A stretch of DNA of 64,000 nt from Cyanophora paradoxa CCMP329 (lineage: Eukaryota; Plantae; Glaucophyta): contig QPMI01000174.1 of NCBI GenBank assembly GCA_004431415.1, positions 115,209 to 179,208 on the forward strand. Direction: 5' to 3'. Position 1 is the first letter of the stretch. Each line of letters starts with the position of its first letter. The notes beneath the pieces were generated by a model. The model saw only the letters and a program-made list of their open reading frames with translations, made no database searches and was not told the origin of the DNA. A program made the translations under genes and the position numbers. Below, piece after piece: positions 5,956 to 64,000 of this stretch.

Positions 5956-6015
5956 GGTGTTGTAGATCTTCTTAATAAAGATAGATAAAAATAACGAATT
6001 CTTACTAATAATGGT

Positions 6016-7416: not shown

Positions 7417-7468
7417 GATTTCTCTTTTACAATAGAGAAATATAAAAATTCTGTGAATGATCCTTAAT

Positions 7469-8479: not shown

Positions 8480-8507
8480 TTTCTTTAATCTATATTCATA
8501 TAATAAA

Positions 8508-10051: not shown

Positions 10052-10290
10052 GTTACTTAATAACGTCTGAGAAAATATTTTCCTTGTTACCCATACCTAT
10101 CGCGTTCTCCTTAAATCATTTTCGGTTGCTCACGGGGCTTTTTTGAATTTCGCACGATTAACGGTAAGACAACGGAAGCGGAGCGTAAGACATCAGTAAT
10201 AAAGGAGATGATAGAAGAGAGGGTAACGTGTATGTTTAGCGGTTTGGAGAGAGCGGAGAGGCATAGAGTAGCGCGATTTCCGAGTTAATC

Positions 10291-11010: not shown

Positions 11011-11388
11011 ATTTACGTTGTGTTTCGTAGAATGGGTGGTGGTTTTCTTCAATTCCGATCGATTCAGCATATTATAATTTGTTTTCGATACATAATATAT
11101 CGATTACATGGGTGGTGGACTACTTCAATCGAGATTATATCGCAATTCAATCGAGATTATATCGTTAAATTATGTACCTTCAATCGAGAATATATCGATT
11201 TTCATAAAATACATATTAATCGCGTTTATATCATTAATTTAATCGATAAAATATCAATTATTTAATCGAGATTATTTAAATTAATACAAAAATACATATT
11301 TTTCGATTATTTATACATATTTATTAACATGAAAATACATATTTATTTAATTTAAAATTCATATTTTTCGATTATCTTTATATAAATT

Positions 11389-11475
11389 AACACATAAAGA
11401 AAAACAAATTAAAATCCTGGAGCGGAGCGCGTAGCGCGTAGCGGAGGGATTTTAATTTGTTTTTCTTTATGTGTT
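11389..11475. repeat. Perfect 29-bp inverted repeat (hairpin) at the virus-host junction
   Basis: AACACATAAAGAAAAACAAATTAAAATCC (11389-11417) and its exact reverse complement (11447-11475) around a 29-nt GC-rich loop. Confidence 0.95.
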
Positions 11476-24689: not shown

Positions 24690-27600
24690 ATCAAGCGGGA
24701 CCCTCGTTGGCGGGGGGCCGGGCGGGGCCCCCGGCCGCGGAGGGGCGGGCGCGGGGCGGGCGGCGGGCGGCGGCGGGGCGCCAGCGCGCCGCCTTGATCC
24801 ACGTGGTGGTGTCCCAGTCCCAGAAGGCCGGCGCGTGCGCGCCCCTGCGCCGCCCTTCAAAAACACGGCAAGTACGAGTTTGGCTTAGGTGCGGGCGGGC
24901 GCGGCACCTCCGGGCCTTGTCCCAGGCGGCGAGCGAGGCCATCGCGGCGTCCAAGTCCCCGAGCGAGAGGCCGAAGGCGGCGCCGGGGGCGGCGGCGGCG
25001 GCGGGGGCCCCCGCCGTGGAGCAGAGCGCCAGCAGCGAGCAGGTCCCGAACTGAGCGCAGGGCGCCTCGGGGGGTGCCAGGAGCTCGAGCGCGGCGCGGA
25101 GGGGTACGGCGCACGTCGGCCCGGAAGGCCAGGGTGGGGGCGGAGCCCGCGGGGGCCACCTTGCCCCCGGCCCCGCTGCAGGGGTACGTCGGCACTGAGA
25201 TCCGTGGGCAGGCGGCGAAGGGGGGTACCTTGCGGCCCGAACGAGGGCCTCCTCGTCGTAGTTGCGGGGTAGGCGGAGCGCCAGGACGGCGGCGTACCCC
25301 CCGCGGGCCGCTATCGCCAGCTCCTCGACCGAGGTCGAGCCGAGGGGCAGGGCCCGAATCGCGTCCTTCTCCCCGTACCCGGCTCCCCCCCAGGGCGGGT
25401 CCAGGAAGATCACGTCCTGGGGTACGTCTCAGAGAAGGGGGGAGGAGGAAGGGGGTTCGCGCGAACCTGGCGGAGGTCGCGCCAGAGGGCCGAGTAGTCC
25501 CCCGCGAGAACCTGGCGCGTGGGAGGGGGGGGGGGGGGGGGGGGAGGGGACGAGAAGGACGCTCGGACGGCTCGGACGGCTGAGAGAGAAGTGACGAGCA
25601 GACCTCGAAGTCCGCGGAGGGCGGGAGGAGGAGGCGGAGGTTGTGGCGCAGGTCGGCGGCGCGCGAGGCGTCCACCTGCAACAGGCGTCTGGCTCTGGCT
25701 GTAGGCGTCCAGGGCTCAACCAAGGGGGAATACCTCGACGGCGGTGAGGCGGGCGAAGCAGCGGGCGAGGGCGGCCGCGCAGCCGCCGGCGCACGCGGCT
25801 CCGTCGGTGACGCGGAGGGGCAGGGGCAGGGGCGCGGGGCCGTCCTCGGGGCGCTGCTGGGTCCGGAGGAGGGCGGGGCGGCAGAGGGCGGCCAGGAAGG
25901 AGGCCATCGCCGCCGCCGACGGCTGCGCATGCCGCGCCGCCCAAAGTCAGCGCGGCGGACGAGGAGGAGGAGTACGCAGGCGGCTTCGAGTGCTCGCGCG
26001 CGCCTCGTCGGCCACAGAGTAGGAGGCCTCCTGGTCGATCCGCAGCCCCGCGCGCACCTGCCAGCTCGAGAGAATGAGCAAGCTAACGCTCCAAGAAAGA
26101 GAGATAGAGAGATGGAGGGAAGCGCGGCGGGGTGTCCGCGGCGGGTTGTCCGGGAACGAAAGGAAGGCGGGGAAGAAATGGAGAGACGTCAGAAGGGGCG
26201 GGTGGGGGCACCTCGAAGGGCTGCCACGGGAAGAGGGCGTCGGCGCGCCCGGCCGTGTGCGAGAGCCGTACTGCCGCTCCTCCCAGCACCTGCGCGGGGC
26301 GGGTCCGGCCCGTTGGCACCCGCAGCGGAAAGGGGCGGCGCGGGGCGGCGGGGAGGGGCCGGAGCCGAGCCGAGCCGAGCTTGCCGCCCATTAAGCGAAA
26401 TTGAAAGCTGATTGAGGTTGTGAGCTGGAGGCTTCTCGGGGGCTCACGAGCTTCCCGTCGAGGTCGGCGATGGCGCGGTCTGGGGCCGAGGGGTCCGCCG
26501 GGCGGAGCCAGACGTGCGCCCACCCGAGCAGCCTGCGCCGCACCCGCGCCCCCGCATCCTCACCCGAAGCGGGGGCGAGAGAGAGAGAGAGAGAGAGAGG
26601 GAGGCGACGCACCGGCCGGCGATGCCCACCGCGAACTTGACTACAGCCGAAAAGGGGTGAGCGTGGGGCCGGGCGGGAAGCGGCGAACTGGGGGACCGGG
26701 GAGGGGGCCGGCGCACGGCGGGCGACCTGGCCGTAGGGCGCGAGGGCCGCGCGCAGCTGCCCGTTGTAGGCCCGCTGCCGCGCCCGCAGCGCCGCGGGGG
26801 GCCCCGGCCCGGCCCCTGCCCCCGCGCCGCGGCGTCAGACGAGCGGAGTGAGTGGAGCTGGAGAATGCGCACCACCGCGGCTCCCGCCACGGCCTCGGAT
26901 CGCTGAGCCCGGGCGTCGCCGGAGCTCGAGGCGGCGGCGACGGCGCTGCCCGGCGCCGGCGGCTCGGAGTCCAGCCCGGAGACGAAGAGGACGGCCAGGC
27001 TCGCCTCCTTCTCCAGCGTCGCCATGCCCCTCCTCGCCCCGCGCCCCCGCCCCGGCTCGCCCTCGAGCCCCCGAGCCGCCTCCCCCGCCTCCTCCGCTTC
27101 CTCCGCCTCCCCGCCCGCCTCAGCCCCGTGCTTGCCCCCGGGGGCTCCTCCGCACGCCCCCTGGGCCGGCTGGGGAACCGCGGCTGCCGCGCCCGCGGCC
27201 GCCGGCCGCAACGCGCGCCGTGTGCCCCACTGCACGATCGGCTGCCCAAACGCCAGGGGGTACGCCGCCCCAACGGCCGCCCGCGCCTCCTCCGGCGTGG
27301 GGTGCCGCCGCGGGCAGCCCGGCGCGCCGCAGCCGCCCCGCGACACGCCCAGGGCCTTCCGCAGCTCCGTGCTGCACATGTCGCCCTCCACGTGCAGCTT
27401 CCCGCACGGCGCCGCCGCGCCCGCCGCCGACGCGGCGGCCGCCGCCTCGCCCGCGATCCGCCGGCAGGCCGCGGCGACCTCGGGGCCGGAGCGGAGGGTC
27501 TGGCGCTCGCGGGAGGAGACGGTGCAGTCCACGAGGGTGACGGTGCCCTCCGCGACCTCGCGCGAGCCGATCTCGACGCGGGCCGGGACGTGCCGCTCCT

Positions 27601-28076
27601 CGTGGCGGTTGAACTGCGCCGCGCGCTCTCGGGCCGGCGCGCAGTTTAGGCGGGGGACTTGAATCCTCGGACCTTGTAGCCGGGGCAGCGGCGGAGGTCC
27701 ACGTCGGCCTCGACGCGGAGCCCGGCGGCCTCGAGCAGAGCCGCCTCCCGCTCGCACGCGCCCACGATCGCCCGCGTCGCCTCGTCCGTCGCCGAGCTGT
27801 ACACGATCGGCACGATCACGATCTGCGCGTGCGCATCAGCGCGAGCAGAGCGCGCGGGTCATCGAGCGCGGGCGGGAGGGCGGGCGATCGAGCAGCACCT
27901 CCGGCCCCGCTTTTTAGATACACGCATTTGCGCACCTCGGGCCTTGCGCCGAGGGAGCGCGCGAGGCAGTCGATGCCGTCCAGCGCATCCCAGCACACGA
28001 TCGAGTTCACAGCCGCCACGCGTCCGCCTCCATCGAGCACCGCGGCCGCGTTGAGCCGCGCGGGGCCGCGAGGCAT
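24690..28076 (-). CDS. Multidomain RNA methyltransferase: ProRS-like anticodon-binding domain + RRM + TGS1-like cap guanine-N2 methyltransferase
   Basis: IVIVPIV..GLRVEAD..FNRHEERHVPARVEIGSRE; VLFVSGL..LRAALAPYGQV..GWAHVWL..RAIADLDG; LRIDQEASYSV, VTDGAACAGG, DVIFLDPPWGG. 3' end approximate. Confidence 0.7.
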
Positions 28077-28195
28077 GGGAAGTTGGGAACGACAGCGCCT
28101 GGCAGTTGCAATACCCGGTACCCGTCTCAGACTTCAGAGAAGTTCAGACTTGCAGCTCAGACTTCAAGCGCTCGCGTCGACGTCTGCCAGACCCG

Positions 28196-29948
28196 ATGAG
28201 AAAGCGCTCGCGCCTTGAGATCAGCGAGGCCGAGCCGTCTGCGTCGGAGTCGTCGGCCGCGCCGGATGCGCCGGCGGATGCAGACGAAGGAGATGAGCGC
28301 TCGCCTTTTGACGAGCTGCCCGATAATGTGCTACACACCATCTTCGAGTTCGTCGGGCCGCGCACCTTCTTCGCCGACTTCGCGCGGCTCGCCCTCGTCT
28401 GTCGGCGCTGGCGGGAAGTCAGCGCCAACTGGCTCGTGCGCCCCGCGCCCGCCGCCGTCGCCAGACGCCGCTCACGCGCGCTCTCCGCAGGGGCCGCTTT
28501 ACACTGTGGACCTAAGGCGCGGGTGGTACGGCCCGCCGCGCAGCCGCTCCTTCGAGGGCCTGCTGGGGTTCCTGCGGCGGCGGGCCGCCGGCACGGAGAA
28601 GGCGCACCTCTCGTGCTTCCCGTGCCTCCTGGCCCCGCAGATCTTCGACATTCTGGGGACGCTGCCGAACCTCCGCTACCTCTCGGTCTCCCTCTCGGGC
28701 CTCCGCAGCGCCCACCTCTGCCTCGAGCACCCGACGCTGCGGAAGCTCAAGGCCCGCCGCCCCGCGCCGGAAGCTCCCGCCGCGCCCTCGACGCCGCTCG
28801 CGCGCAGATCTTCGATGCGCCGGACTTCCTCACCTGGGTCAACGCCTTCCCCTTCAACGTCGTGCGCCGCCGGCCCCGCCGCCCGCCGCCCGCCGCCGCT
28901 TCGACGCCGGGGCAGGGCGACCTCTTCCACCTCGAGCTGCGCACGCCGTGCCTGGAGGTGCGCCGCGCGCCCGCCCGCGCGCTCGAGCTCGCATCGGGCC
29001 GGCCCGCCGACGGGCGGCGCGCGCAGACCCTCTGGCTGCCCGCGTACGTCTGCGACGCGCCGGGCTGGCCCGCCCGCGTCTTCGGCGGCTGCCCCCGCCT
29101 CCGCTGCCTCGACCTGAGGCCCGCCCCGCCCCGCGCCGGCCCGCCCCGCCCCGCCCCGCCCGGCCTCACGCGGCGGGGGGCGGGCAGCGACGTGTCGGCG
29201 TCGCGCCCGCGGCGGCGCGAGTTCACCGTCTACGACTTGGTCGACGTCGCCCGCCACTGCGGCGGTGCGACCCGCCGCCCCCGCCCCCGCCCCCGCCTCC
29301 GCCCGTGAGTGGGCCCCTCCTGCTGCGACAGGCCTCGAGGACCTGATCATGCGGCCCGAGACGGACTACCTCGCCTTCGCCTCCTCCCTGGGCCTCTTCG
29401 AGAACCTCACCAGGCGCCCGCGCCCGCGCCCACGCCGGCGCCCCTTTCCGCCCTCACGGCGCCCGGCAGCCTGGACATGAGGGACGTGGCGCCGCGGGAC
29501 GCGGAGAGGCTCCTGCGCGACTGGGTCGCCCCCCGGCTCGCCGCGAAGAAGGAGGACGCGCGGCTGCCGCCGCTCCGCCTGAAGGAGCTCGCCCTCTGCT
29601 ACGGCGCCGACGCCGCCGTGCTCCGCGCCGCCGCCGCCGCCGCCGCGCCGCACTGCCGCGTCCTCGCCATCTACCCGCTCCACCCCTCCGTCTCCAAGGA
29701 GCAGGCGGGCGCTGCGCCGGCGGCCCCCCCGCGGTCCGAGCTGAGCGGGCCGGGGCGCAGGTGTGGGAGCTGCTGGGCCAGCTCCCCGCCCTTGCGGATC
29801 TCTTCATCGTCACGGACACCTCCCCGGCCCCGGAGCCCGAGCCCGAGCCCGAGCCGGCCGCCCCCGTGCACACATCCCAGCCCGCCCCGCCCCGCCCCGC
29901 CCCGACCCCGCTTACCCTCGTCCCGCCGCAGCCAGCGCCGGCTCCGCC

Positions 29949-39614: not shown

Positions 39615-41687
39615 TCATACCTGTCTAGGATTGCCCTGACAGATCCACGAAGCTTGAGCGGAAGCTAACGGTTGCGGATGCATCTGAAAACTGCACGGCC
39701 GCGGAGGCCACCCTACTGCTACTATAGCCAAGAGCGTGGCATGCGTGTCAAAAGTCGCGGCGCTTCGGGGCGCCCTTGCGGCGGGATGCGCCGCCCCCGG
39801 AGGGCGCCTCCGCCGCGCCGCCGTCGCTCGGGCTGCTGCCCTCGGCGGGCCCCGGCCCCGGCCCCTCCTCGGAGCCGCCGTCACCGCGGGCGCGCTTCGG
39901 GAGCGAGGCGGCGCGGCCGGTGAAGGCTCGCGGGGACGTGCCCCCGATAGGCCGGTGGAGGGCCGCCGCCGCGCCTCGCCAGGGTCTCCCTCGCTCAGCT
40001 CGCGGTCGGGGGATGGGACGGGCGAGCGGGCCGGGGGTGGACCGAGGAGGGGGGTGGGGGCCTGCTGGAGCTGGGGGCCGCTGGGCGGGGCGGGGGCGGA
40101 CTCGGCGAGGGGCATGGGGTAGGCGCGCGGGCTGCCGCCCTCCTCGTGGTTGCCGGGGAGGAAGGGGGAGCAGAAGACGACGGCGGCGGTGACGTCGTCG
40201 TGGATCATACGGCGGGCGGGGCCCGGGGGCAGCTGCCCGACCATGCTCAGGCTCAGCCCGATCCCGTCCGCCGCCGTCTCGATGCACTTCTCTACGAGGC
40301 GCGCCGCCGCCGCCGCCGCGCCGTGCCGCCGCCCGGCGGCTTCCTCGCCCGGGCGCTCGCGCTCGCGGCCGGCGCTGCGGGGGGGCGGGGGGGCCCAGGG
40401 GACGCAGTCGGCGACGATGCGGACGACCTCGTCGTTGGAGAGCTCCTCGTAGAGCCCGTCCGAGGCGAGCACGAAGAAGTCGCCGGGCCGCACCGTCGCG
40501 CACCGCACCTCCGGCTCGGCGCTGATGTACGAGCGCTCGGGCACGCTCCTCCGCAGCGCCTCGGGCACGAGCTCCGCCAGGCCGGCCTTGAGGTACGCGT
40601 CCCCGAAGGCGCGAGTCACGAGGAGCGTCCCCCTCACGCGCAGCGTCCCCTCCTCTGCGATGCTCGCCTCATCGGGCATCACCGGCTCGTTCGTCACTGT
40701 CGACAGCACCGCGCCCGCGTCGCCTGCGCGTGCCGACCCAATTCAGCGCCGGCGCGGCGGTAACGCGCGCCCGCGAGTGCCGGGGCGCACCGGAGCGCTT
40801 TATGACCGCGGCGATCTCCTCTCTGGAGCGGGTGTTGTGGTCGTTCGAGAGCACCTCGCACGTGTACTTGCTGCGGTCGTGGGGGTCTCTTCGCCCCAGA
40901 ACCGCCCTAGAGTCGCCCGCGTTCGCCACGTAGAGCTTGTCACCCCGTAGCAATGCCAACTGCAGAACCTATCAGAAGCGGAACCGGTGCGCGGGCAGGG
41001 CACGGCGCACGAGTCCGCATGATCCGACACCGATAACGTCCAGGATTGCTGGGCCCGGCGGCGTTCCTGCGGACTTCTCTACGAGTTCCTTGATCTACGC
41101 AGAGAGCGAGTCAGGCAATTAGACTGTATTGACCAGAGAGTTTGGTTGCTCGTGCGCTGACCTTCCTGTGGACGTGCTCCTCCAGATACAAACTGCGGCA
41201 GGGCAGTTATGTGATGGGCGAGCAGTCTTCTTGCATGCGCGCGCATCCGACAGGACGACGCACCTATCCGCTTCCAAGAAGGCCGCTGAGAGCGCGGCTT
41301 CTGGACTTTTGATCCCCTCCGGGGAATCCAGGTGCTTCCTGACAATCCCAAGGAGGTTTTTCTTCAAGAAAGAAGCCACAGAGGTGCCGCCGTGCCTGCA
41401 GGGCGGGTGTGAGAGGCACGTTGGCGCGTGATTTCGCTGACGGGCAGGGCGTCCGCCGGCTACGGAGGCGCGTCCAGGCAAGAAGCGCACCCATCGAAGA
41501 CTGCCCAGACGTGTGAGGGCCCGGCAGGGCTAGATCTCGACGCGTCCTCGTCCGCTGCGAAGGCATCCTCAATCGTCTCGTTCGCTGCAAGCTGCGCGAC
41601 GGCCCAGCGGCCGCTTCCGCACGAGTCCTCCACAATCTCCAGTGCTTCAAGAGCGCACGAATTGGCCCTCCTCTTCCTGGGCGGCAT
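39615..41687 (-). CDS. Protein phosphatase 2C (PPM family)
   Basis: IEDA, WAVFDG, LYVANAGDSRAVLG, LSNDHN, VTRAFGD, FFVLASDGL, HDDVT; 3' end approximate. Confidence 0.92.
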
Positions 41688-42306: not shown

Positions 42307-44728
42307 TCACAGCTCCTTGACGTAGTTGGACGGGAAGAGGCCGCTGCGGCCGTTCACCTCGCCCTGCCACCAGCCGCTGCGGGAAGGTCAGGGGCGGTGC
42401 GAGGCGTGCCAAGCCCAGGACGAAGCGCTCGCCTGGGGTCCTTGTTCGTCACGTTGATGATCTGGGGCGGGGCGGGGCGCGCGTGGGCGCGCTGGTCGGG
42501 AACGAGGAGGGAGGGAGGGGGACGAGGGGCGGGGCGTGGGGGGAGCACCTCGCCGGCCTCAAAGGAGAGCTCCGAGGGGTCCTGGCCTTCGTAGGGGAAC
42601 AGCGCCTCACACTTCTCCCCCTGCGCCCACCGCCCCGTCGCTCGACCGCCGCCGCCGGCCGCCGCGGCGAGCTTGAGGCGCACCTTCGCCTCCTCGGCGG
42701 CGGCTGCGGCGGCGGCGGGCGCGGCGGGGCGGCGGCGGGCGCCGGCTCGGGGCGGCCTGCGGGGTGCCTCGGTCGGTCGGGCGCCGGCGGCGAAGGCGGG
42801 CGGAAAGGGGGAGGGGGGCTGACGGCGGCGGGGCCGGGCGGGGGACTCGGCGAGAAGCTCGACGTAGTTCGAGGGGAAGAGGCCGGACTTGCCCTTGAGC
42901 TCGCCTGCCGGCCGGGGCGGGGCGGGAGGGGGCGGCTCTCAGGTTCGGGCGGCAGGTGGGGGAGAGTGGGGCGTGGGCAGGGAGGCGGGGCGCACCCTTC
43001 CACCAGCCGGAGGCGTCCTGGTCGAGGATGACGATGATGTCGCCGGCGTCGAAGCTCAGCTCAGTCTCGTCCTGCCCCGCGTACGGGTACAGGCCCTTCG
43101 CCAGCGGGCCCGCGGCGGCCGAGGCGGCCGCGGCGGGGCGGCGGCCGCGGCGGGGCGGCAGCCGCGGCGGGGCGGCGGGCGCCGGCTCCGGCTCACGGAC
43201 CGGCTCGGGCTCGGGCGCGCGGACTGGCTCCGGCTCCGGCTCACGGATCGGCTCGGGCTCGGGCTCACGGATCGGCTCGGGCTCGCGGATGGGCTCGGGC
43301 TCGCGGATGGGCTCGGGCTCGGGCTCGAACTCGGGCTGCTTGGCAGCGTACTTGGGCGAGTCGAAGGCGGGGGCCGGCTCCGCCGGGGGCGCGTACGACG
43401 CGGCCGGCGCCGCCTGCACGGGCGCCTTCGCCGCCGCAGCCGCCGCCGCGGCCACGGACTCCTCCCGCTCGCGCTGCATGTCTGTAGGCAGGCCGCGCGT
43501 GAGGCGCGCGGCGAGAGGCGTGGCACGGCAGGCGCGGCGCGGCGCACCGGCCTCCTGCTGCGCGACGAGGCTGGAGAGGGTCTCCCAGGAGAAGGGCGTG
43601 TGACCGGCGTTCTCTGCCACGTGCCGCTGGAGCGGGCCGGCGGTGGAGGCGACGCCCTGCACGAAGCGCGAGTGCGCGGAGAGCAGCTGCGCGGCGGCCG
43701 GTTCGTCAGAGGCCCCTTAAAAGGAAGGGAAAAGAGACGCGGACGTTCACGAAGGGCGCGTCGATGAGATCGGCGCGGTGGTCGTCGAGGGTCGCAAGCT
43801 GCACGGTGAGCTTCTCGTTGAACTCGGCATACCGGCTCGCGGCAGCCTCCAGCTTGCTCTCCTTCTGCTCGCGCGATCTGAGCACGCGCGCACGGGCCGC
43901 GGCGCGAAGCGCAGGTTGCGCAGGCCCGCGCGCACCTCCTTGAGCTCGGACGGATCGGCCTTGGAGTTCTCGCGGAGGGCCCGGACCTTCCGCCGGTAGC
44001 TGTCGTAGTCCAGCAGCAGCTCCTCGCGCTTCTCCACGTCTTTCTGTGGAGAATGTCAGGCCGAGCGCGCCCTGGGCCGCCGCCCCGCTCGCCTTCAGCT
44101 GCGGCAGCTTCGAGAGAAGCTCCTGGATCGGCCCCATCACAGAGTGTGAGATAGCTTGCTCCTGCGGACGACATTAAGCTCGCGGCCGCCCCAGGGGCAT
44201 GGCGCGGGAGGCGCGCGGGAGGCGCACGAAAGCGACACGCGTGTTCGAATCGACATCGCTGCTGAGCGACGCGAACTCGGTTGCCGCCCCCCGCAGCCGA
44301 GCCTGTTGGTCGTAGAAGCCCGCCATCGACTCGGAGAGCGCCGCAGAGGCGGACACGAATGCTGCCGAGCGTAAATGAGCGGGGCAGGGCAGGCCGCGTA
44401 GCGTCGGAGGCACCCTTTGCGGCCTCGGTGTACTGTTTCAAGTCGCGATAGATCTTTGTCATCGACCGCTCGATGACCGAGTACTTCTCAATGAGCTCCT
44501 GCGGCGAGGTCTCAAATGAGCAACGTTCGAGAAGGGCGGGCTAGCGCGACTATGAGCGCGCCTCGAAGACCGGGTCATGGGTCACTTCGGCACGACCGAT
44601 CTTCTGGAGCACCTGCACCCGGGGGCGTGAGCACGGCGGGTGCGCGCTCGGACAACTAGTTCGCGCGGCGGTTGTTAACCAACCTGCTGCTTTGCGCGCC
44701 GGCGCACGGAGCGCAACTTATCCAACAT
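42307..44728 (-). CDS. BAR domain protein with EPEP repeats and two SH3 domains (amphiphysin/endophilin-like)
   Basis: [28 protein letters not shown] (BAR); [28 protein letters not shown] and [23 protein letters not shown] (SH3). Confidence 0.9.
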
Positions 44729-51926: not shown

Positions 51927-52151
51927 CCCCCCCCCAATCCATTCTTCGCCACAAGCATCCTTCTGCTCGCTTGCCGGCTCTTCTGACCACGCGCTGCGTA
52001 CACGTAGTGTCGGGCGGACCAGCGGGCAGCGGAACGCGTGGACTCCCTCCACCGGGCCAGTCTAGTTGATTGTAGTTAGTAAATCATCGAACAATTGAAC
52101 GACAATCAAATTACATCGGAGCAGAGGCAGAGGCGGGGCGGGTATCAGAGG

Positions 52152-55100
52152 CTAGAGGGCGCCGGGGCGGAAGGGGCCGGCGAGGAGGTCGCGGGCGGCG
52201 CTGCGGGGGATGGAGGGGTCGAGGCGGAGGCAGCCGCGGCGCCAGAGCTCCTCGCACGCCGCCCCCGCCGCCGCCTTCTCCGCCCTCTCCCGCTTGGGGC
52301 CCTCCCGCACGAACTCGAGGAGCTCGGCGCCGGCCCCCGCGGCCGCGGCCGGCAGGGCGAGGCGGACCTTGACTCGGAAGAGCGGCGCGTGGGGCGGCCC
52401 CTCCCTCTCAACGAGGGTGAAGGCTATTTAGATGCTCGCGCACGCGATAGAGGCGCCGGGACGGCCGGGGGAATCCCGCTGTTCGACCGTCACCGCCAGC
52501 CGAATTACGCGAGCCTCGTGGCGCGAGCTGCAGCCTCTGCTAGCTCTGAGTGATCCGCTCCACACTAGCGCGGCCCCTCCCTCTCGGCGCGCAGGCCCTG
52601 CAGGCTCGCGCGCAGGCAGGGCATCCCGTACTGCTCCAGCAGCTGCCGCGCCGCGCCGGCCCCCGCCTCCGCGCCCCCGGCGGCGGCGCCGGCGGCGGAG
52701 GCGGCGCCGGCCACCCGCCGGCACCAGCGGCCGCGGAAGAAGAAGCGGGTGCCGGCGGTGCTGGAGGGGTGGGCCAGGCGGCGCCGGCCGGAGCTGCGGC
52801 TGGCGGCGCGGAGGGCTGGAGGCGGAGAGGCGCGAACGGGGGCCCGTTGGGCCCCGAGCTCGGGCTCGGCCACAGCGCGCCCTGCGGAGCAATCTCAAGA
52901 GGGGAAGCGATCCGCGAAATCGGAGGGGCGGAGGGGCGGACGCGGGCGTCGAGCCACTCGCAGGCGGCCTTCGCCGCCGCGGCGCGGGCGGCGTCCTTGG
53001 AGGGGCCCCGCCCCTCGAACTCCGCCCCCTCGCCGCCCGGCGCCGGGAAGGGGAAGCGCAGGCGCGCGGCGAAGGGCGGGCCGCTCGGCGAGTACTGCTC
53101 GGCCGGCTGCCACGCCGACCTCGGCAGGCCCGGCGGCTCGGCGGCGACGTGCGGGGCCCCGGCGGCCATCCGGAGGCTGCCGGCGGCGTCAGCTCCGACA
53201 TCGACAGAAGGCGGAGCTCGCGGGGAAAGCCGCGGGCCTGGCGAGGAGGGAGGACCAGGCGTACTGGGCCAGCCAGGCCCCGCGGGCCTCCTCGGGGCCT
53301 GGGCCTACGGGCGGGCCCGAGCGCGAGGCGGCGCGGGGCCGCCAGCGGGCCTCCCTGAAGTCGGGGGGGAGGGTGAGGAGCCCGGCGTCGTCGAGCGCCG
53401 CCAGCGCCGCCGCCTCCGCCCCCCGCACCGCCCCCCGCTTCGTCTCCTCGGGCCCCCCGCGGAAGGCGCGGGGGAGCGCGGCGGGGAGGCCGGCCGCGGG
53501 GCCCGAGAGCCGCGCGGTGGCGACGAAGACGGGCTTGTGGGGCGGGCCGCTCGCCTCCGCCTCCGTCTCGATCTCCACGCCCAGCTCCGCCCGCACGTGG
53601 CTCACCAAGCTGCGCCCGAGCAAGTCTTCAAGCTCCACGAGCGGGAGCTTTTTATCGGGCTGAAGCTTCTCAGATTTTAAACCTAGGCTTGTCAGCTCAA
53701 AGACGTGCGTCGAGGAGCGGACCGGGAGGAGTACTGGCGGAGGAACTCGTCGCGGGACTCGATGCGGGCGTAGGGCGGGGCCGCCTCGTCGTCCTCGCCG
53801 TCGCTGCCGCCGCTGCTCGCGTCGTCCCCCGCGCCCCCGCCCTGGGGCTCGTCGCGGGGCTCGCTCTGGAGGGTTTCGACGGCGCGCTGCATGACCGCCT
53901 CCCGCAGCTCCGTCTGCCCGAACGCCACCTCCGCTGCCGCCGCCGCCGGCGCGGGCGCCCGTCGGGCCGACTCCGGGAGAGGAAAGCGACGGGGACGCAC
54001 CCGGGGAGCCCTCGTGGAACATGCAGACGAAGGTCGAGGCGGCGTTGCGCGCGCGCCCGCGCGACTGCACCAGCTGCCGCCACGACGTCGCCCCGTCGTA
54101 CCTGCCCGCCCCAAGGCGCCCTCGCCGGCGCCCCGTCAGTCTGATTTGTGCCGAGACTAAACTTTCTGATAGTGCTAGCTAAACCCAGGACGGCAGGCGG
54201 TCGATCTGATCGCTTGAAATCTAGACGAGGACGTGACGGACCTGACGACGAGCTGGCAGGAGGGGATGTCCAGGCCCTCCTGCATCGCGGAGGCGACCCG
54301 CGGCTGCGCGTCAGAGGGGCCGCAAGGGGAGATCTAGAGGAGGGGAGGCGAAAGACTGTAGAGAGCATGCCTCGGCGATGCTCGTCGCGACGAGCCTGCC
54401 GCGCGCGCGCGTGTCGGCGTCGTCGGCCCGAGAGTGGGGACGAGGTGTAAGGGCGGGGCCGGCCTCGTGCGCACACGTTGACTGTGCCGTCGCGGAAGCG
54501 CTGGACGGCCCCCTTCTGCTGCGCGATCGTCATCCCGCCCTCGCCCTGCCCCACCAGCCGCTGCCCCGCCCCCGTGAGCCCTCCAAGCGTCGCTCGCGGT
54601 CGCTCGGGTGGAAGCTGCGGGACCTCGGCGCGGATGGGGACGGGGCGCTGGGCGCCGGTGGCGTTGAGGGCGCGCTGGAGGGCCCCCGCCGCGCTCCGCT
54701 CCTCCACGAAGACGATGGCCCGAAAGCCCGGGCCGGCCGCCGCCTCCGCCCCGCCGGAGGGCGCCGCCGCCTCCGCGGCGTGCTCGGCGAGGATCTGCTC
54801 GAGCCGCTTGAACTTCTCGACGCTCCTCACGGACTCCTCGCGGGGCCTCGGGAGGAAGTCGGCCCAGGAACCGGCGTCCGACCCTTCGGCAGCAAGAGGA
54901 GCGAGGGCTGGCATGGCGACGTCCGAGCGCGTCAAAGCTCGAAGCAGGGGATGGAGGGGAGGTGGCGGCCCTAGGCCTCCGTTCGCGGACCGGTGCCATA
55001 GCCGGCGAGGGAGGCCTCGGCGGCGGCGAGGAGCGTCTGCATCGCCGCCGGGGGCCCCCTCACCGTCGCCCCCGCCGCGAAGACGTGCCGCATCGCCCGG

Positions 55101-58042
55101 GCGCTCCCGGCGAGGTGCCGCCGGCCCTCCTCCAGCCCGAAGTCGAACTGCGGCGCACTCGATCAAATTCAAGGAGCTCGAGCGCAAGGCGACGAAGCAA
55201 GGAGGGAGAGTATAAGAGAATAATTAAGAGAAAGCAAGTAAGACCAAGGGACACGCGAATGGGAGAGAGGGGGGCGGGGCGGGGCACCATGAGGCGCCAG
55301 GCGTCGCTGGCGACCTCGAGCCAGCGCCAGAGGCACGCCGCCTCCACCACCCCCGCCTCGGGCCCGAGCGCTAGCTCGCCGCCCCCGCCCCGCGCCCTCG
55401 CCTGCGCCCGCAAGCTTCGAATTCGCCAGGGGTGGGGCGAGGCGGCGGCGGGGGGCCGGACCGCCTCCGTGAGCTCCTGCGCCCGCTCCCGCGCCCTCTT
55501 CGAGTATTCCTCCGTCGCCCGCGGCACATCCCCCGCCGGCGGCTCCTGCCTCGCAATCGATCGCACGGGCAGCCAGCATCAGACCGGGCGCCGCGCCCGT
55601 TTCATTCTCCCGCACCTCGGAGGCGGGAAGGAGGCGCTCGGCGGCGTCTATGAGGCGGCGGCACGCCTCCTGGAAGGCCCGCTCCTCGGGGCCCAGCCGC
55701 ACCACCACCTGCAATCGCACGGCTAGGATAAGTGTACGAGTAAGCAAATTAGAACAGCAGCAAGCTTAAAATCTACGCATACCTTCTCCATGCGCGCCCG
55801 CGACACTGCCGCCCCCAGCTCCTCCTGAGTCGAGTTAGAGTGAAGCTCTAACATTGACGCGGGCGTGCCGCCCGTACCTTGAAATCATCGTGCACGGACT
55901 GGATGCGGGCGCGCATGCGGTCTGAAGAGCGCATGCGGCCTGCATGCAGGGCGCACGCGCGCTGGCTTGAGCGACGCGTCTCGGGGCGGGTCTGAGCTGC
56001 AGGCGTGAGGGCCCGCGCGCACGCATGAGCCTGCGGAGCTCGTTGATGGTGCGCTCGAGGCTCAGGTCCCCCACGACGGGCGTCGCCGTTAGGCCCAGGA
56101 TCTGGCGCGAGGCGAGCTTGATCGTGATCGCAAGCAGGAACCGTTTTCATTAACGTTTGAGGCGTCGATCGCGACGTAGGCGAGGCGGAGCGTGCGGGCG
56201 GGCGCGGGCGCGGACCGAGGGGACGGGGCGGCCGGCGCGGCGGAGCGGGTGGTAGTGCTCGCGGAGGATGCGGTGGAAGGGGTGCTGCTTCTTCACGTGG
56301 TGGCACTCGTCGATCACCTGCGGCGATAGGAATGGCAGGGTCGAACACAGAAGTCCAGCGAAGCTGGCTACACATAGCGCGCACCAAGAGGGCGAAGTGG
56401 TGCAGGGCGGGCCGGTCGGCGTCCTCGCCCGGGGCCTCGAGGGCGCTCAGCAGCAGGCCCGCCGTGCACACGAACCCGTCCTTCTCCCGCAGCTCCCGCC
56501 CCCTGCGCACGCCGCCACGGTGCACGCCGCGCATCACCCGCAGCCGCACCCGCCGGCCGCGGCCGGCCGGGCAGCCGAGCGCAGGGGCGGGGATCGGAGA
56601 CGGGGAAATAAAGGTCGAGGAGTGTGTGTGTACGGCGAACCAGTGGATGCGGGTCCCAGCGGTGTTGGTCCCGATCCGCCACGGCCGGAGCCGCTCCACC
56701 ATGCGCCCGCCCTGTAAGGCAGTCGGCTTTCTGGAGATGCCGGCGTCGAATAACAAAAACGAAATCGACGAGCCTGCTGGTCGGAGAGCGTGTTGGTCTG
56801 CACGATGAACAGAACTGCGCATCGATCGCGATCAGACGGTATCATGATCAAGGAAGGTCCTGGGGTGGCTTCGAATTCCGCGTGCGCGCCCTTCCCGCCT
56901 TGGAGGAGCGCGCGCTCGGCGACCGCCATCGCGACCTCCGTCTTGCCGGCGCCTGCCCGCTCAGATGAGCGCCGGGGAGAGGCCGCAAGGCAGATCTGGA
57001 TCCGGAGGGGAGCTCAAGGAGGTTGGGCGGGTGTGGGCGGAGGGTGGGGGGGGGGGGGGGGGTGGAGGGGGGGGTGGAGGTGGAAAGAAGAGGGGGAGAG
57101 GGGCCGGGGGGGGGAGGGAGAAGAGGGGGCGGAAGAGGATGGGGAAGGGGAAGTGGGGGAAGGGGGAAGGGGATTAAAGGGGAAGCGGGGGGGGGGGGGA
57201 AGGGGGGGAGGGGAAGGGGGCGGGGAGGGAGGACGGAGGGGGAGGGGGGGCACCGGTGGGCAGGCAGACGATGAGGTTCTCGCGGCTCGCGCCGGCCTCA
57301 TCCACGAGGGCCTGCGGCGCGGACGCGGCCGCGCGTGGTCAGCGCGGGGGTTACGCGGGGGCTCGACGCCCGGGGCTGCACCTTCTGATATTCGCGCACT
57401 GCGCAGAAGAGAGGCCAGTCAGTTGCAAGCGACCGCGACTGTAATCTAGCGAGTTCATGTACCGCGCGCGCTCACGCACGTGTGCCGTAGACATTTGGAG
57501 AGAGGTTGAGCTGGTTCAAGTGCCTTGCAAGCTCTTCAGTGCTCCGCCCGGCGTCGAGTCCTGAGCTGTTCCCGCTACCGCTCGCGCTCGAGATAGACCC
57601 CGGCGCATGGACTAAGCTTGGCGGGCCGCTGCTGACGCTACCGACGCTGAACGAGCTCGGCGCAGCTTCAGAGGCAGGCCGGGGCCCTTCGCGATCGGCT
57701 GCAAGGTCGAGGCGCAGCGCGGCGAGCCTCTCAGGGTCCTTGCTGATTGAAAACAGGTCGAGCTCAGGCGGCGCGATGACGATGCTGTAGAACTCGCGCA
57801 GAAGGTTTTTGACATGCTCGCGCGGCGGGTACTTTCGCAGCTTGAGGTCCAGAACGTCCCAGCCTGCGAGAGGATGAGAGCCGGCGGCGCGCAGCAGCGC
57901 ATACGTGCGCACCGCGCATGTCGGCGTCGACGGCGCGTGCGTTCGCCACGAACTCGGCGAACGTCCAGTCGGGCTGAGCGAAGACGACGTAATTGCTGAA
58001 GACGAGCTTCGCCTTGTCGAACACTTGCGCATGAAGCTGCAT
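52152..58042 (-). CDS. Dicer/RIG-I-type SF2 helicase with three C-terminal dsRBD-like domains; no RNase III or PAZ
   Basis: VREYQK..NLIVCLPT/GAGKT, VIDECHH, ILGLTATP, AIVFVEER, RLVGQG..FRDGTVNVLVATSIAEEGLDIP, QSRGRAR; dsRBD motifs SGPPHKPVFVATARL, GRGPSKDAARAAAAKAAC, GPPHAPLFRVKV..KAAAGAACEEL. Start at 58042 inferred. Confidence 0.85.
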
Positions 58043-58335
58043 TCCGACCGACCAGAGTGCTGCTCTCCCGCGGAGCCGAAGGCCAAGGCCTCGGCGCCGG
58101 CCACCTCGCTTGCGGCCGACGCGTACGCGCGCGCGCGCGTCGGGCCGTCGGCAGGCCGCGCGCCCTGCGCGTGTTCGCTGGCGCCCGCAATAGCGTATAG
58201 CGAGCTGCCAAGAATTCGCGTACCAGTCCGATACCGGTACCCGTCAAGCTCGAGGTCTGTTCGACCGGAAGTTCAGCCGAAAGATGCCGGCCCTGAGCTC
58301 CCCCTGCGCGCCCTGCCGCAACAAGTGGAGTAAAG
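58043..58335. promoter_or_regulatory. Putative bidirectional promoter between the helicase and RNase III genes
   Basis: Only ~290 bp between the inferred divergent ATGs; no specific elements identified. Confidence 0.4.
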
Positions 58336-61300
58336 ATGACTTCGAACACGATGGATGACGAGGCGATTCGGCGTGCGCTCCGCGCGCTGGGCGTGCAGAA
58401 GCCCGCTGCGAAGCTGGTGGAGGCGCTGCGGTCCCCGAAGGCCGAGATTTGGGACCGCATTCGGCTTTTCGATAAGGCGGTTGAGGTGAATGCGCGCCTC
58501 GCTGCGCTGCGGCTTTCTCTCATCTCGGCTCGGTGCATGCGCAGGATCTCTGCGGGCTCTACGTATACGGCGCGTTCCCCGAGGCCGATCAGGGCGCCCT
58601 TACTGACCGGTTCGTGCCGCGCCCGTGTGCTAGCGCGCTGCAGCTGACGCGGCCGCGGCCGCCACACGTGCACATGTACATGTACAGAGTCCATGGACTT
58701 GTAGCGACGAGCGTCGTCGCGCAAGTGGAGCGCCAGGCCGGCCTGAAGGAGAAGTTCGGCCCCGACCTCGCATTGCGCGACGTCATCGCAGCGATCGTGC
58801 GCATTTCCGGCCGCGCCGCCCGAGCGCCGCATGCAGAGCGCTGATCATGAGCGACGCCCTCCAGTTTACACTGCACGCCCCCACGACCGCATCAGATGTG
58901 CTGCATAAGCTGCTCCTCGAGCCGCACGCGAGCAGCGCCGGCAGAAACCCGGTGCGCATGCGGAACCCTGGCCTCGCGCGCACCATCGAGCATCGGGCCG
59001 CGCTCACGCGTCGGGCGATCCGCAGCACGCGCTGGCGCACGAGGTGTGCGGCCCCCTCTCCGTGCACATGGAAGCCACGCCCTGCGGCACCCGCCGGGCC
59101 CAAGTCAAGACTGGTGCGTGCGGTCGAGGCGCGCCGCGCCGCGCCCGCACGCGTACGAGGGACGGCGGTTGATGCCTCGCAGCGCGAGGCGGGTCGTTCA
59201 CGCGGGAGGGGCCGGACAAGCAGTCGGCGACCCACCGGGCATGCCTAGCCGCCTTGGTATGCGTCCACCTAGGCCTTGAGCTTGAGCTCGCGCCTTCAAC
59301 TGATCTTCGCGGCAGCTGCACGAGTTCCGCACGGTCGACGAGAAGAAGCACCGGCTGCGCCTGGAGGCCCGCGGCGACGGCGGCGTCGCCTGCCTGCGCC
59401 GCCGCGCCCCCGAGGGCGCCGAGAAGGAGGAGGAGGAGGAGCTTTTTGCGGTGGAGCCGGAGGCGGGAGATCTAGATGCGGACCCGGCCGGGGGCGCGGC
59501 GGCCCCCCAGGAGCGCGCGAGCGCCGAGGAGCGGGCCGCCCTCCACTACTACCGCCACCGGCGGGCGCTTCTCGCGCCCGCGGGGGCCCCCGCCGGTGCG
59601 GCCGCGAGACGAGCTGCCGTGACGCCGGCCGGCCTCTAAATGAAGGCCTCCGCAGTCCCGGACCTGGACAAGAAGCTTGTGGAGAGGGCCAAGGAGGTGC
59701 TGCGGGGCAGGGTGCAGGAGCCCGAGGCGCCGCAGCCCGGCGGGGCCGGCGCCCCGGGCTTCGTCCTCCTCTCCGACCTCGCCGCCTACATCGCCCGCAA
59801 GCTGCGCGCCGCCAACCAGGCCCCCGCCGCCGCCCAGTGCGCACGCGCGCCGCCGCGTACCCCGCGCTCCGCCCCGCCCGATGCGTCGGCCGGCGTGCGC
59901 AGGGTGACGGCGGAGCGCCTGGAGGAGGCGCTGCGGACGCGGCCGGAGGCGGCGGGGCGGTTCACGGTGGAGGGCGAGGGCGAGGCGCGGCGCGTGCGCG
60001 CCGACTTCCACTTCGAACGGGACCTCGGCGTCGTGCACCCGACGCTCGCCCCCGAGGCCCGCCCTCCCGCCCTCCCTCCTGCCTCCCCTTCGCTGCGAGA
60101 GCTTGAGTCGTCGCCTGCGCAGAGTGCGCCGGAGGAGCCGGCGGCGACGCTCGTGGCCCGCGCCGACTTCGTGAAGAGCCTGCGGAAGCAGAAGGGGCTC
60201 CTCACCTGCTACGGCCGCCTGAAGAGCATCCCCTTCTTCCCCGCCGCCTTCTTCGAGGCGAGGGACGCCCGCCCGCGGCCGGCCGACGGCGGCGTCCTCC
60301 TGAGCGCGGCCGGGCGCAGGCGAAGGAGATGCACCGGAGCATCGGCAAGCCCCGCGCCGCCCGCGCCGCCGTCGCCGTCTTCGTCGACCTCCGCGCCGCC
60401 GCCAGCGCGGGGTACCCCTTCCTTGTCACCCCGGAAGGTCCCTCCCCTTCTCTCCCCGCCTCGAGCTCGCCGCGGGCGCGCCTCACCGGCGGCGGCGGCG
60501 GGGGCGGCAGGCGTGGTGCTGACGGCGAACGGGCTGCCCATCCCCGAGCGGCACGTCACCCTCGTCCAGGAGACCGCCGCCGGGCCCCCGAAGCCCTTCA
60601 GGCGCTCCGACTTCGTCGCTGCGTCGCAGGTGCAGCCGCCCCGTCGCCCCCACGCTGTTCGCCCGTGACGGCGGCGGGCAGGCCCCCGCGGGAGGCGAGC
60701 AGGCGCCTGAGGCCTCGAGCGGAGAGCCGGAGGCGGTCGCTCCAGCGATGCCGGAGCCGGTCCCTGCACCTAAGGCGCCGGCCGCGGCGCCGGCCGCGGC
60801 GCCGGCCGCCTCCGTGGCTCCCGCCGCGGCGCCGCCCTCGCCGCCGCCCCCTTCGAAGCCCAAGGGCGTGGCCGGGGCCATCTTGGAGTACTACAGGTCG
60901 CGCCGGGCCGGGCCCGCCGGCCTCGAACTGCCGCCCTCCGCCGCCGCCGGCGACGACGACGCGCGCCTCGCCGCCGCCTGCTGCGATGCCCTCGGCCTCC
61001 TCCTCGAGACGGTGCCGCCGCTCGCGCTCGACCCGATCGCGACCCGACCCGTCCTGACGCGTACGCCGGCTCCGCTGCAGCCGGAGGGCGGCGGCGGGCC
61101 GATGCGGGTGTCGCGGCCGTCCCTCACAGACGAGCGCCTCGAGGCGGTGGCCGTCGCCTGCGGCGTGGCGCCCTTTGCCCGCCCGGCGCTCCTGCGGCGC
61201 GCCCTCACGCACTCGACCTACGCCCAAGTCTGCCCCGAGGACGAGGCGCGCGCACGCGCCGCTCTCTTCTTCTTTCTTCCCTCGCCCGCCCGCGCGCCTT

Positions 61301-64000
61301 ACTCGGTCGAGACGCGCGCAGGCGGCGGAGAGCTGCAGCTACGAGCGGCTCGAGTTCCTGGGGGACAAGGTCCTCTCCCTCGCCCTCGCCCACGCCGCCT
61401 TCCACGCCACCGCCGGCCGCCCCGGCGCCCACGCCGCCTGGCGCACCGCCCGCGGCCGCATCCAGAGCAACGCCTCCCTCGGTGGAATCGCGGGGCCGGG
61501 GCCGGGCGGCCTGGGCCTGACGCGGCACGTGCGGGCCTGGTCGGGCTTCGACTCGGAGGCGGCGGCGCGGGGGCGGGAGGCGCTGCAGCGGGCGGCGGGC
61601 GGGCGGTGGCAGCCGCCGCAGCCGCTGGCGGAGAGTAAGGTGCCGGGCGACCTGCTCGAGGCCTTCATCGGGGCCATCTACGTCGACAAGGCCCGCCCCA
61701 CCACGCCCCGCCCCGCAAAGCGTCCCCCTCGAGCTCACGATGGGGGCAGGGGCTGGAGGCGGTGGAGCGGTTCGTGCGGGGGGCGGTGCTGCGGCCCGAG
61801 GTGCTCCGGGAGGCCGGCCTCGAGCTCGAGGAGGGCCCCCTCGGTGCGTCGGACACGCGGAGTCGTACCGCAGCTTTGCCGCCCTCCGACTGACCGCCCC
61901 CGCCAGAGCGCGTGGTGCCTCTCAACGCCGGCCACTTCTTCGCCGACGCCGACGAGACCGGTGCGCGCCCCTGGCTTGCGCTCCACTCTGAACTGCAGGG
62001 TTGCAAAGCTCGCCCTTGATGCCGGATGATGCAGGAGAGCTGGCCCGCGCGGCGCCCCGCGCGGGGCGCCCCGCCGGCGAGGGCGGCTCGAGCGCCGGGG
62101 GGTCGGAGGCGGGGGTTGGGGCCGGCGCGGACCCCGTCCTGGGCGGCTTCGAGCGCGTCCGCGGCAACGACAAGCACTCCCGCGGGACGCAGTGCGTGCC
62201 GCCCGCCCGCGAAGCCAGCGCCGGCTCCAAGCCTGAGCCAAGAAGCCGCCTCGAGGAGCTTCGGCCTAACCACAGTCCCGCGCGCGCGCCGCAGCTTCCG
62301 CCTGGCGGACCAGGCCACCTCGTACCGGTGCCCCCCTTCCCTCCCGCCCTCCCTCTCTCTTCTTCGAATTCGGGCTCGAGCCTGGGGCGGGGCGGGGCGG
62401 GGCCAGGTCGGTGGGGGACATGGCCCTCCTCCACGAGCTCATCCTCCGCGCCCACCGCGCCGTCCGCCCGCCGCCTCCCGCCCCCGGCCCTCATCCCCGC
62501 CTCGAGCCGCTCGCCGCTTGCTGCGCAGGGGGAGGTGCACTACACGAACGAGATCCTCACGGGCGTCACGCGCTTCGCCCTCGACCTCGACGGCCTCGAC
62601 TTCTTCCAGGCGCCCCCGCCCCTTCAACTTTACTGATCCCTGTCTGGACCTCTATCTGGACCCTGCTTAGAAGCTGCCTGTATCTAAATTCGAACGTCTT
62701 CCCCAAATTTAAGCTTCCCAAACGCCACCCTCTTCTCATCTCCTTCTCGCGCAGGAGGTGGGGCGGGATGCCTCCGGGGGCGTGGCGAGGGTGGCGGGGC
62801 TGGTGCAGGGGGCGCTGCGGGCGCTGCTCCCCGAGGACACCGACGTCGCCTGCGTCCTCCTCGACGCCTCCAACCCCACCAAGGTCCGCGCTATCTGGGT
62901 CTATCGCCAGTGTGTAATTGGCGCTCTTTCTTAGGCTCGAGGGCCCCTTTCTTCCTGGGGCCGGCCCCGCTAGCTCCGCACCCCTGTCCCTCCTGATCGC
63001 GATCGACGGCGGCGCAGCGCTCGCAGCACGTGCACTGGCCGGGGGTGCACCTGCGGCTGGAGGACTGCCGCCGCCTCCTCGACTGGCTCGCCTGCCGCCT
63101 CGCCGCCGACTGCACCGCCCTCGAGCTGGCAGCGCCGGCGCCGGCGCCGGCGCTTGCGCCCGAGCTCGAGGCGAGGGCCGAGCCGGGAGCTGCGGCGGAG
63201 GCGGGGAGCGGGGGGCGTCTCGGCCGCAAGCCGGACGGCCGGGCGCCCCTCGAGATGCCTTCGCACGTGCCCGAGTTCCCGCCCGCCGCCCCGGGTGCGC
63301 ACGCTCCGTTCCCGCCCTCCTCTCGCCGCACGCGCCGCCCGGCGAGCCCCGCGGCAGAGAGCTCGAGCACACGAGAGCGGCCGGAGCCCGACCCGGGCCG
63401 CGAAGGCTGCCGCGGGGGCGCCTGGCCCATCTCTGCGGATCCGGAGATCGGGGGGACAGCGCCGGCGCCGGAGCCCGGCGCGGCGGCGGGGAGCGACGAG
63501 AGCGAGGAGGAGGAGGCGGCGGGGGCGGCTGCGGTCGTCGGGGACGCTTCGGCGGCGCAGGCGGCGGCGGAGGAGAAGGCGGGGAGGGAGGGGGAGGTGC
63601 GGGAGGCGGCGTACTGGCGCAAGCGACTGGACCCCGACGTCTACCTCAGCAGGAAGCTCCGCGTCTACCTCTCCGACAAGTTCGACGACAAGACCAAGTG
63701 CGCTCTTCCCGTCCCAGTGTATACTCAATTATAATAACCGCCTGTCGTTGCTTCCGTCCATCTCACTGCGTGGGGGCGCGTCCCCGCAGGCGGCCGGCGG
63801 GGCGGACGCTGGTACAGCACGCGGGCGGGCCGCTGGTCGACGAGACGGGACGGCCCGTCACGAGCGGCCCCGGCGGGGCCCCGGCCTTCCTGACCCACCG
63901 CGAGGTACGCAAGCGCGCCGCAGGGCGCTGCGGGCCGCGCCTGAGGGCGGCTGCAGGTCCTGCGCCTCACCTGCCTGCGGGACCCGGGCGGCTGGGCGCC
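58336..64000 (+). CDS. Multidomain protein: degenerate RNase III - dsRBD - degenerate Tpt1/KptA - intact RNase III - NCLDV-type AEP primase; 3' end beyond window
   Basis: RRALTHS..YERLEFLGD..GDLLEAFIGAIYVD (61190-61690); AEP motifs RFALDLD, SQHVHWP, LDPDVY..LRVYLSDK; Tpt1-like VFVDLRAAASAGYPFLVTPEGVVLT; exons can be joined in frame through GT/GC-AG introns. Confidence 0.78.

Follow-up and report, generated by a model that had tools for sequence, protein, structure and literature searches.

We analysed a stretch of 64,000 nucleotides from the glaucophyte Cyanophora paradoxa CCMP329 (GenBank assembly GCA_004431415.1, contig QPMI01000174.1, positions 115,209 to 179,208 of the forward strand). 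We call this whole stretch the window, and all coordinates below refer to it. At its right end lies a gene in which exons for an RNase III domain and exons with the motifs of an archaeo-eukaryotic primase (AEP) are spliced into one frame. Head to head with it stands a gene for a RIG-I-like, Dicer-type helicase, and we tentatively propose that the pair encodes a split Dicer of unusual composition. A preliminary description had flagged only 61100..64000; its gene begins some 2.8 kb before that region, and the N-terminal domains as well as the helicase are additions to that description. The features of the two genes, with the basis of each in brackets, are these:

58336..64000, + strand: RNase III-AEP gene (exon model and spliced contigs)
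58423..58870, + strand: probable catalytically dead RNase III-like domain, residues ~30-110, signature decayed to DRIRLFD (RNase III profile)
58892..59256, + strand: possible double-stranded RNA-binding domain, dsRBD (resemblance)
59754..60530, + strand: possible degenerate domain like Tpt1/KptA (RNA 2'-phosphotransferase), residues ~318-487 (hhalign and HMMER)
60682..61011, + strand: linker exon rich in Pro and Ala (sequence; spliced in X1 and X3)
61153..61785, + strand: RNase III domain, residues ~655-820 (Pfam and our own profile)
62175..62609, + strand: N-terminal part of the predicted AEP domain with TH, E947 and motif I LD958LD960 at 62583-62591 (colinear with A468R-type and, from the E strand on, also with PrimPol-like profiles)
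62755..63128, + strand: predicted AEP motif II, K1009 and S1011-Q-H1013 at 63021-63029, and the helix after it (profile alignments)
63129..63590, + strand: 134-residue insertion rich in Ala, Pro, Gly and Glu between motifs II and III, spanning one intron (model and alignment)
63591..63697, + strand: predicted AEP motif III, LD1193 at 63630-63632, with R1203 and S1207-x-K1209 (profile alignments)
63790..64000, + strand: exons that follow the AEP core (63697/63790 and 63902/63955 are joined in X1 and X3)
52155..58042, - strand: RIG-I-like/Dicer-type DExH helicase (DECHH, QSRGRAR) with C-terminal dsRBDs (protein P0004 plus a 5' extension)
58225..58248, no strand: gap of ~24 nt between the listed contigs of both genes (helicase contig ends at 58224 in X1, RNase III-AEP contig begins at 58249 in X8)

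The fusion gene was modelled with 26 exons (58336..64000, +) and a stop-free frame of 1,267 codons. Its introns in the window (20 GT-AG and 5 GC-AG) measure 52-145 nt. The gene runs past the window end at 64000, and the visible protein has at least 1,267 residues. Parts of 57000-64000 are held by 17 public sequencing runs, none of them recorded as RNA; four were compared, two of these again at 100% identity. Because introns are absent from the contigs, we treated them as mRNA. Runs X1 and X3 belong to two different studies (P1 and P2). One X1 contig of 3,827 nt follows the exons from 60121 via RNase III and motif III to 1,199 nt past the window, and an X3 contig of 2,761 nt spans exon 7 through motif II. 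All 15 listed joints, out of 25 in the model, agree with the exon model, each in one X1 and one X3 contig. The 63294/63358 junction is outside the listed joints, but it is seen as contiguous record coordinates. Further, the contig distances from RNase III to motif II (606 nt, X5) and to the motif III exon (883 nt, X1) both equal those of the model. The 5' part is chained on by a 30-nt overlap of two X1 contigs, and for the X3 pair the model gives an overlap of 23 nt; exons 2-6 (58545-59256) rest on the model, with joints outside those listed.

The RNase III and AEP-motif exons sit in one spliced, stop-free frame. A single mRNA for both, as the preliminary description had anticipated, is thus borne out by contigs of two studies, and none of the spliced contigs holds a stop between the two domains. 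Shorter polyadenylated forms may exist as well, since the contigs are assemblies. The host-like composition and intron richness noted earlier also hold, with GC content at third codon positions of 0.96 in RNase III and 0.95 in AEP and 8 introns from the AEP start onward. The motifs first named all fall within 61100-64000: ERLEFLGD at 61343, GDLLEA at 61646, RGT at 62181, GEVHYTNEILTGVTRFALDLD at 62529, RSQHVHWPGV at 63018, WRKRLDPDVY at 63615, LRVYLSDK at 63657 and LTCLR at 63966. The exception is GGPGHLVP, an out-of-frame reading of exon 62295-62327, for which splicing gives FRLADQATSYR instead.

The RNase III domain passes the Pfam cut-offs for PF00636 (E 1.6e-8, 35.7 bits, cut-off 27) and PF14622 (E 3.9e-9, 37.2 bits, cut-off 35), and it scores 49.3 bits on our own profile, built from 73 domains of viral proteins and Dicers. 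As to a Dicer-like, viral or bacterial origin of the domain, Dicers lead in whole-protein scores only by virtue of having two RNase III domains. The Cyanophora domain keeps E696 (61352), D700 (61364), D795 (61649) and E798 (61658), which we take to be the metal-binding acids, together with N735 and K791, presumably additional functional residues. [quoted passage not shown] A candidate partner helix for such a dimer spans an exon junction.

The AEP superfamily is defined by motifs I (hhhDhD/E), II (sxH) and III (hD/E), as stated in a passage of PMC5862659. In the Cyanophora protein these occur in order, as FALD958LD960, S1011QH1013 and LD1193, just as originally pointed out, and the protein also keeps an E further upstream, a K ahead of motif II, and R and SxK following motif III. 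For comparison we built three reference sets: A468R-type (106 cores of 120 loci; PF23162 confirmed in 4 of 4 tested), D5/C962R-type (79 of 120 loci; 1 of 1 tested) and PrimPol-like (122 loci yielding 8 distinct sequences; one of the 4 tested gave a UL52 match, the other three no Pfam match). The label of the last set rests on motifs that we presume to be typical of PrimPol. The sets come from pattern scans seeded on motif II, so the shuffle nulls keep motif II fixed. Under these conditions HH-suite gives 40.8 against the A468R-type profile with the insertion left in (null maximum 31.8, 0 of 113 shuffles as high) and 38.3 with the insertion cut (null maximum 36.9, 0 of 60, z 4.5). The PrimPol-like profile gives 34.2 (null maximum 22.0, 0 of 60, z 8.5), while the D5/C962R-type profile does not exceed its null (19.1 versus a maximum of 22.4, z 2.4). 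All three profiles, from different seed patterns, agree on the order of those motifs that they include.

We are confident, on the strength of these motifs and profiles, that the C-terminal region is an AEP domain. One could argue that its motifs are chance look-alikes and that there is no AEP at all. Pfam finds no AEP match on the exon pieces, phmmer with 63018-63695 against 1.84 billion protein representatives returns 0 matches, and the whole protein scores -2.0 bits on the first viral profile (full-length A468R, HMMER), third of 502. A single-sequence fold of half the domain is uninformative (pLDDT 53.8, pTM 0.23, no Foldseek match), and searches of PDB sequences with AEP pieces gave no match. 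Against such a coincidence stands the agreement of the three differently seeded profiles on motif order. Moreover, the ESM Atlas links 63018-63695 to PF23162 AEP_C962R at 0.85, which we use as a lead only, and its ten best family matches all come from one AEP family or clan (a second query, the motif I piece with intron letters, found no match). Chance motifs thus seem very improbable. As to the fold suggested at the outset, the AEP assignment is carried by the PrimPol-like and A468R-type profiles; the structure model covers half the domain and adds nothing.

[quoted passage not shown] With PrimPol it has in common the order and spacing of motifs, hLDAS..K before an SxH motif II, the D..VY...R...S.K region of motif III and a long insertion before motif III, present at the same place in two of four PrimPol-like rows shown. 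With phycodnavirus A468R-type proteins (PF23162 AEP_C962R, with weaker PPL4 and UL52 matches) it has in common the N-terminal TH, GE..Y..E, HxHWP, W...hD..VY, the four-residue gap from VY to LR, and SxK. Its motif II is SxH as in the PrimPol-like rows, not GxH (A468R) or DGxH (D5-type), and identity to any reference is at most 25%. The PrimPol-like profile fits as well as or better than the A468R-type one when each is measured against its null. In a 22-row tree made by a quick method (7 A468R of 8 picked, 8 random D5, 6 PrimPol-like and the query) the AEP is a lone branch of 3.2 changes per column, with a long-branch warning. Its nearest rows by path are A468R, but no supported set contains it; it is not nested in the A468R group and lies outside the six-row PrimPol-like group (support 91). 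In further difference from PrimPol it stands behind an RNase III, and the UL52 zinc finger is not visible in the window part of the protein, whose C-terminus lies beyond. The phylogeny with viral AEPs that had been suggested thus leaves the domain in no supported group. Membership in the NCLDV-herpesvirus/PrimPol clade is supported, but the label "giant-virus-type" in the sense of the A468R/C962R type is not (z 8.5 for the PrimPol-like versus 4.5 for the A468R-type profile).

Cellular PrimPol is itself thought to derive from a virus, according to a passage of PMC4538821, so "viral in the deep past" is a fair statement for this AEP, while the data do not support an independent acquisition from a giant virus. 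We also considered a joint transfer of adjacent viral genes for RNase III and AEP and reject it for now. A468R-type viral genes stand apart from RNase III genes: an RNase III motif was found within 2.5 kb of 0 of 80 AEP loci, and an AEP near 0 of 118 RNase III loci in the DNA examined (with flanks reaching as far as 6 kb at 80 of the 120 loci). The idea of co-transfer is drawn from the gene order of chloroviruses. Among PrimPol-like AEPs we observed two intronless metagenomic proteins of 903 residues (L561:217-2925, - strand, and L572:100-2808, + strand), which carry the domain after an N-terminal region of 400 residues; the former has no Pfam match.

The affinity to PrimPol raises the question whether the protein is a DNA-directed enzyme, which would cut or bind dsRNA and prime or extend DNA, for example by making DNA from cut RNA or by restarting replication at RNA-rich obstacles. 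The PrimPol-like profile yields the highest z, the hLDAS..K.SxH pattern and the insertion site are in common, and characterised members of the clade are DNA primase-polymerases (a passage of PMC4538821). All other recognisable domains of the protein and its neighbour act on RNA, however, and a branch as long as this one is unlike a conserved replication enzyme. We consider a DNA-directed function quite unlikely.

The part before the RNase III domain is less clear. Residues ~30-110 probably form an RNase III-like domain devoid of catalytic residues: they score 9.3 bits on the RNase III profile, a value reached by 0 of 2000 local shuffles (best 5.3), and Pfam on exon pieces gives no match there. 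The following stretch (58892..59256) may, by resemblance, be a dsRBD; 185 of 2000 shuffles score as high on a dsRBD profile, which is of low power as it also missed the dsRBDs of the helicase. The Tpt1/KptA-like stretch aligns colinearly over 138 columns in hhalign (E 0.003, probability 10%, 87 sequences) and tops 1001 sequences including shuffles in HMMER (2.9 bits, best shuffle 1.7). Both His-containing motifs of that family are replaced, and its exon pieces have no Pfam match. Helicase and PAZ matches are absent from the scanned exon pieces of the fusion protein.

Multidomain RNA-repair proteins that bear an AEP carry ligase, phosphoesterase or nucleotidyltransferase partners, and of such repair-type domains the visible Cyanophora protein has only the weak Tpt1-like remnant. 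That remnant, lying in the same chain, invites a different explanation: RNase III would process structured cellular RNAs, and the AEP and Tpt1-like remnant would heal or tail their ends, with no link to silencing. Divergent AEPs of the Prim-pol 4/5 type are indeed predicted in RNA-repair proteins, mainly of kinetoplastids, which resemble the Cyanophora protein in joining an AEP to RNA-acting partners in a eukaryotic multidomain chain (Burroughs and Aravind 2016, as cited in passages of PMC5862659 and of PMC6222260), and a single-domain RNase III such as Rnt1 processes rRNA and snRNA (a passage of PMC3579876). But the Tpt1-like match is weak and without its His motifs, no ligase or phosphoesterase occurs in the visible part, and the adjacent dsRNA helicase would be left unexplained. 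Repair or end processing therefore appears rather unlikely to us.

Alternatively, once neighbouring genes might have fused in this lineage without any coupling of functions, leaving the AEP as a decaying or merely binding passenger. Two other domains of the chain look dead or degenerate, and the AEP itself is split by 134 residues of low complexity. Orthologs, too, were missing from our searches. The RNase III exon found none among longer proteins, only 3 Dicer-like matches at 28-32% identity; the motif III piece gave 0 matches in viral and metagenome contigs; and the A468R alignment gave 0 among 4708 candidate proteins of 873-2490 residues. These negatives are weak, the query being short, split and of low complexity. 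At no more than 25% identity and over 8 introns, all three catalytic motifs and the conserved E, K, R and SxK nevertheless survive, as one would expect if catalysis had long been under selection. We thus regard a passenger AEP as improbable.

We now return to the split Dicer and to the second gene. The helicase exons match protein P0004 of Cyanophora paradoxa at up to 100%. Among relatives with solved structures LGP2 (E 2e-37), MDA5 and DCL1 of Arabidopsis (5e-28) score best, with FANCM far behind (1e-11). The protein has a dsrm match and a weak, sub-threshold Dicer_dimer match; a profile search found no RNase III in it, and it has no PAZ. A spliced 5' extension of ~200 codons (58042-57254, -), absent from P0004, adds an N-terminal domain before the Q motif and Walker A, and an X5 contig joins the 5' exons to the helicase exons. 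At the other end, in 52088-52760 (-), contigs of X1, X3 and X5 are unspliced and one base longer than the window, where P0004 uses short introns. The last dsRBD (52158-52418) comes after a stop near 52566, and the ~155 nt that separate the two are bordered by a 16-nt direct repeat. Translation of this dsRBD may hinge on a one-base assembly error or on a small insertion.

The start codons of the two genes are 294 nt apart, and the gap at 58225..58248 likely marks a shared promoter, though contigs cannot prove transcript starts. Adjacency by chance amounts to ~0.3%, assuming at most 5 such helicases and 10 RNase III genes among 31,895 coding sequences (the count from a passage of PMC3700990). 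As read from their domains, the two genes between them provide a Dicer's helicase, dsRBD and nuclease parts, and a predicted AEP stands where one might look for PAZ or a second RNase III.

We suggest the following course of events, in which the coupling of nucleotide polymerisation to dsRNA cleavage, already implied by the preliminary description, is inferred here as well. A shared promoter would co-express the two genes. Long dsRNA, whether it stems from viruses, from transposons or from antisense transcripts, would be loaded by the helicase with its dsRBDs. RNase III would then pair either with a second copy of the protein, making a double cut, or with the dead N-terminal domain, making a single-strand nick; both would leave a 3'-OH. 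Finally, the AEP, tethered just downstream, would extend this 3'-OH or prime anew, thus tailing, filling in or copying RNA, and small RNAs would be fed or marked. Several reports are compatible with such a scheme. Passages of PMC3700990 describe abundant 21-nt exonic and antisense small RNAs in Cyanophora, two Argonaute loci and a single weak Dicer-like gene model found by BLAST. Budding yeast has single-domain Dicers that lack PAZ and helicase (a passage of PMC3579876). AEPs can use ribonucleoside triphosphates, act as terminal transferases and displace strands (a passage of PMC4538821).

A number of points weigh against this scheme. Besides the missing Pfam match, the AEP is weak by the HMMER core profile: it scores 7.7 bits, the trimmed domain is equalled by 23 of 1000 shuffles that keep motif II and the untrimmed one, insertion included, by 168 of 1000. 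The viral pattern KxSxHxHWP has 13 chance matches that reach up to 8 bits on the A468R profile, hence motif II alone drives the HMMER scores. Four homologs of RNA-dependent RNA polymerase (RdRP) exist in Cyanophora (a passage of PMC3700990), and an AEP is not needed as an amplifier. RNA-templated work of AEPs appears in passages of PMC5862659 and PMC4538821 only as reverse transcription by truncated PolpTN2. The visible protein has a single WG/GW dipeptide and thus no Argonaute hooks, and up to 400 C-terminal residues lie beyond the window. The above searches found no ortholog that would support a conserved fusion or a conserved gene pair. On balance, a split, non-canonical Dicer whose tethered AEP extends or copies the cut RNA is the tentative reading we prefer, plausible but still somewhat short of probable. 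That the AEP copies or primes RNA on RNA templates, as a small-RNA amplifier unrelated to known RdRPs in a silencing system rebuilt from parts, is a bolder claim which we hold to be unlikely.

The relation of the proposed split Dicer to known systems is one of partial likeness. As with canonical Dicers and plant DCL proteins, the locus offers a RIG-I-like helicase, dsRBDs and an RNase III; in contrast to them, the predicted parts are divided over two divergent genes, one active-type RNase III is in view, no PAZ is seen and an AEP is attached. No single chain, as far as visible in the window, combines a helicase with PAZ and two RNase III domains. In nematodes a free Dicer-related helicase, DRH-3, works beside a polymerase in small-RNA production. 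The polymerase there is a double-psi-barrel RdRP, whereas Cyanophora would use an AEP tied to the nuclease. Budding-yeast Dcr1 and Rnt1 also have a single active RNase III and neither PAZ nor helicase in the chain (a passage of PMC3579876); the Cyanophora RNase III differs from them in having no confirmed dsRBD after it and a predicted polymerase domain in that place. An RNase III-AEP fusion is undescribed in the literature searched, though figures or supplements of Burroughs and Aravind 2016, Burroughs 2014 and Iyer 2005 may already list it; in passages of PMC12655742, AEP is named in a reference only.

Elsewhere in the window, 4800-11500 is an island of low GC (38-55%). It contains an A32-type packaging ATPase (5176-6015, -, E 7e-11) and, beside it, three long open reading frames without Pfam matches that may be capsid genes (6019-7512, -; 7472-8566, -; 8346-9416, +), and a fourth frame lies at 9419-10096 (-). 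The island also has tandem and inverted repeats of 83-92 nt at 10276-11038 and a perfect 29-nt hairpin at 11389-11475. It is likely an endogenous Polinton-like virus or virophage remnant. Directly adjoining it, an open frame of 857 codons (1479-4049, +) with a weak RNase H match (E 2e-4) is likely a retroelement. Host genes between 26447 and 43716 encode an anticodon-binding domain (26447-27835, -), an F-box (28055-29305, +), a PP2C (39618-40742, -) and an SH3 protein (42610-43716, -).

Within the plant lineage, the glaucophytes make up one of the principal branches. With its expressed RNase III next to a helicase for dsRNA, the locus is a concrete candidate source of the 21-nt exonic small RNAs of Cyanophora. 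The attached AEP, in turn, lets a single protein address whether AEPs work on RNA ends or templates in silencing, and also whether the recruitment of a primase to RNase III took place repeatedly. If the bolder claim of copying or priming on RNA templates is true, this would be an RNA-templated role for an enzyme of the PrimPol clade.

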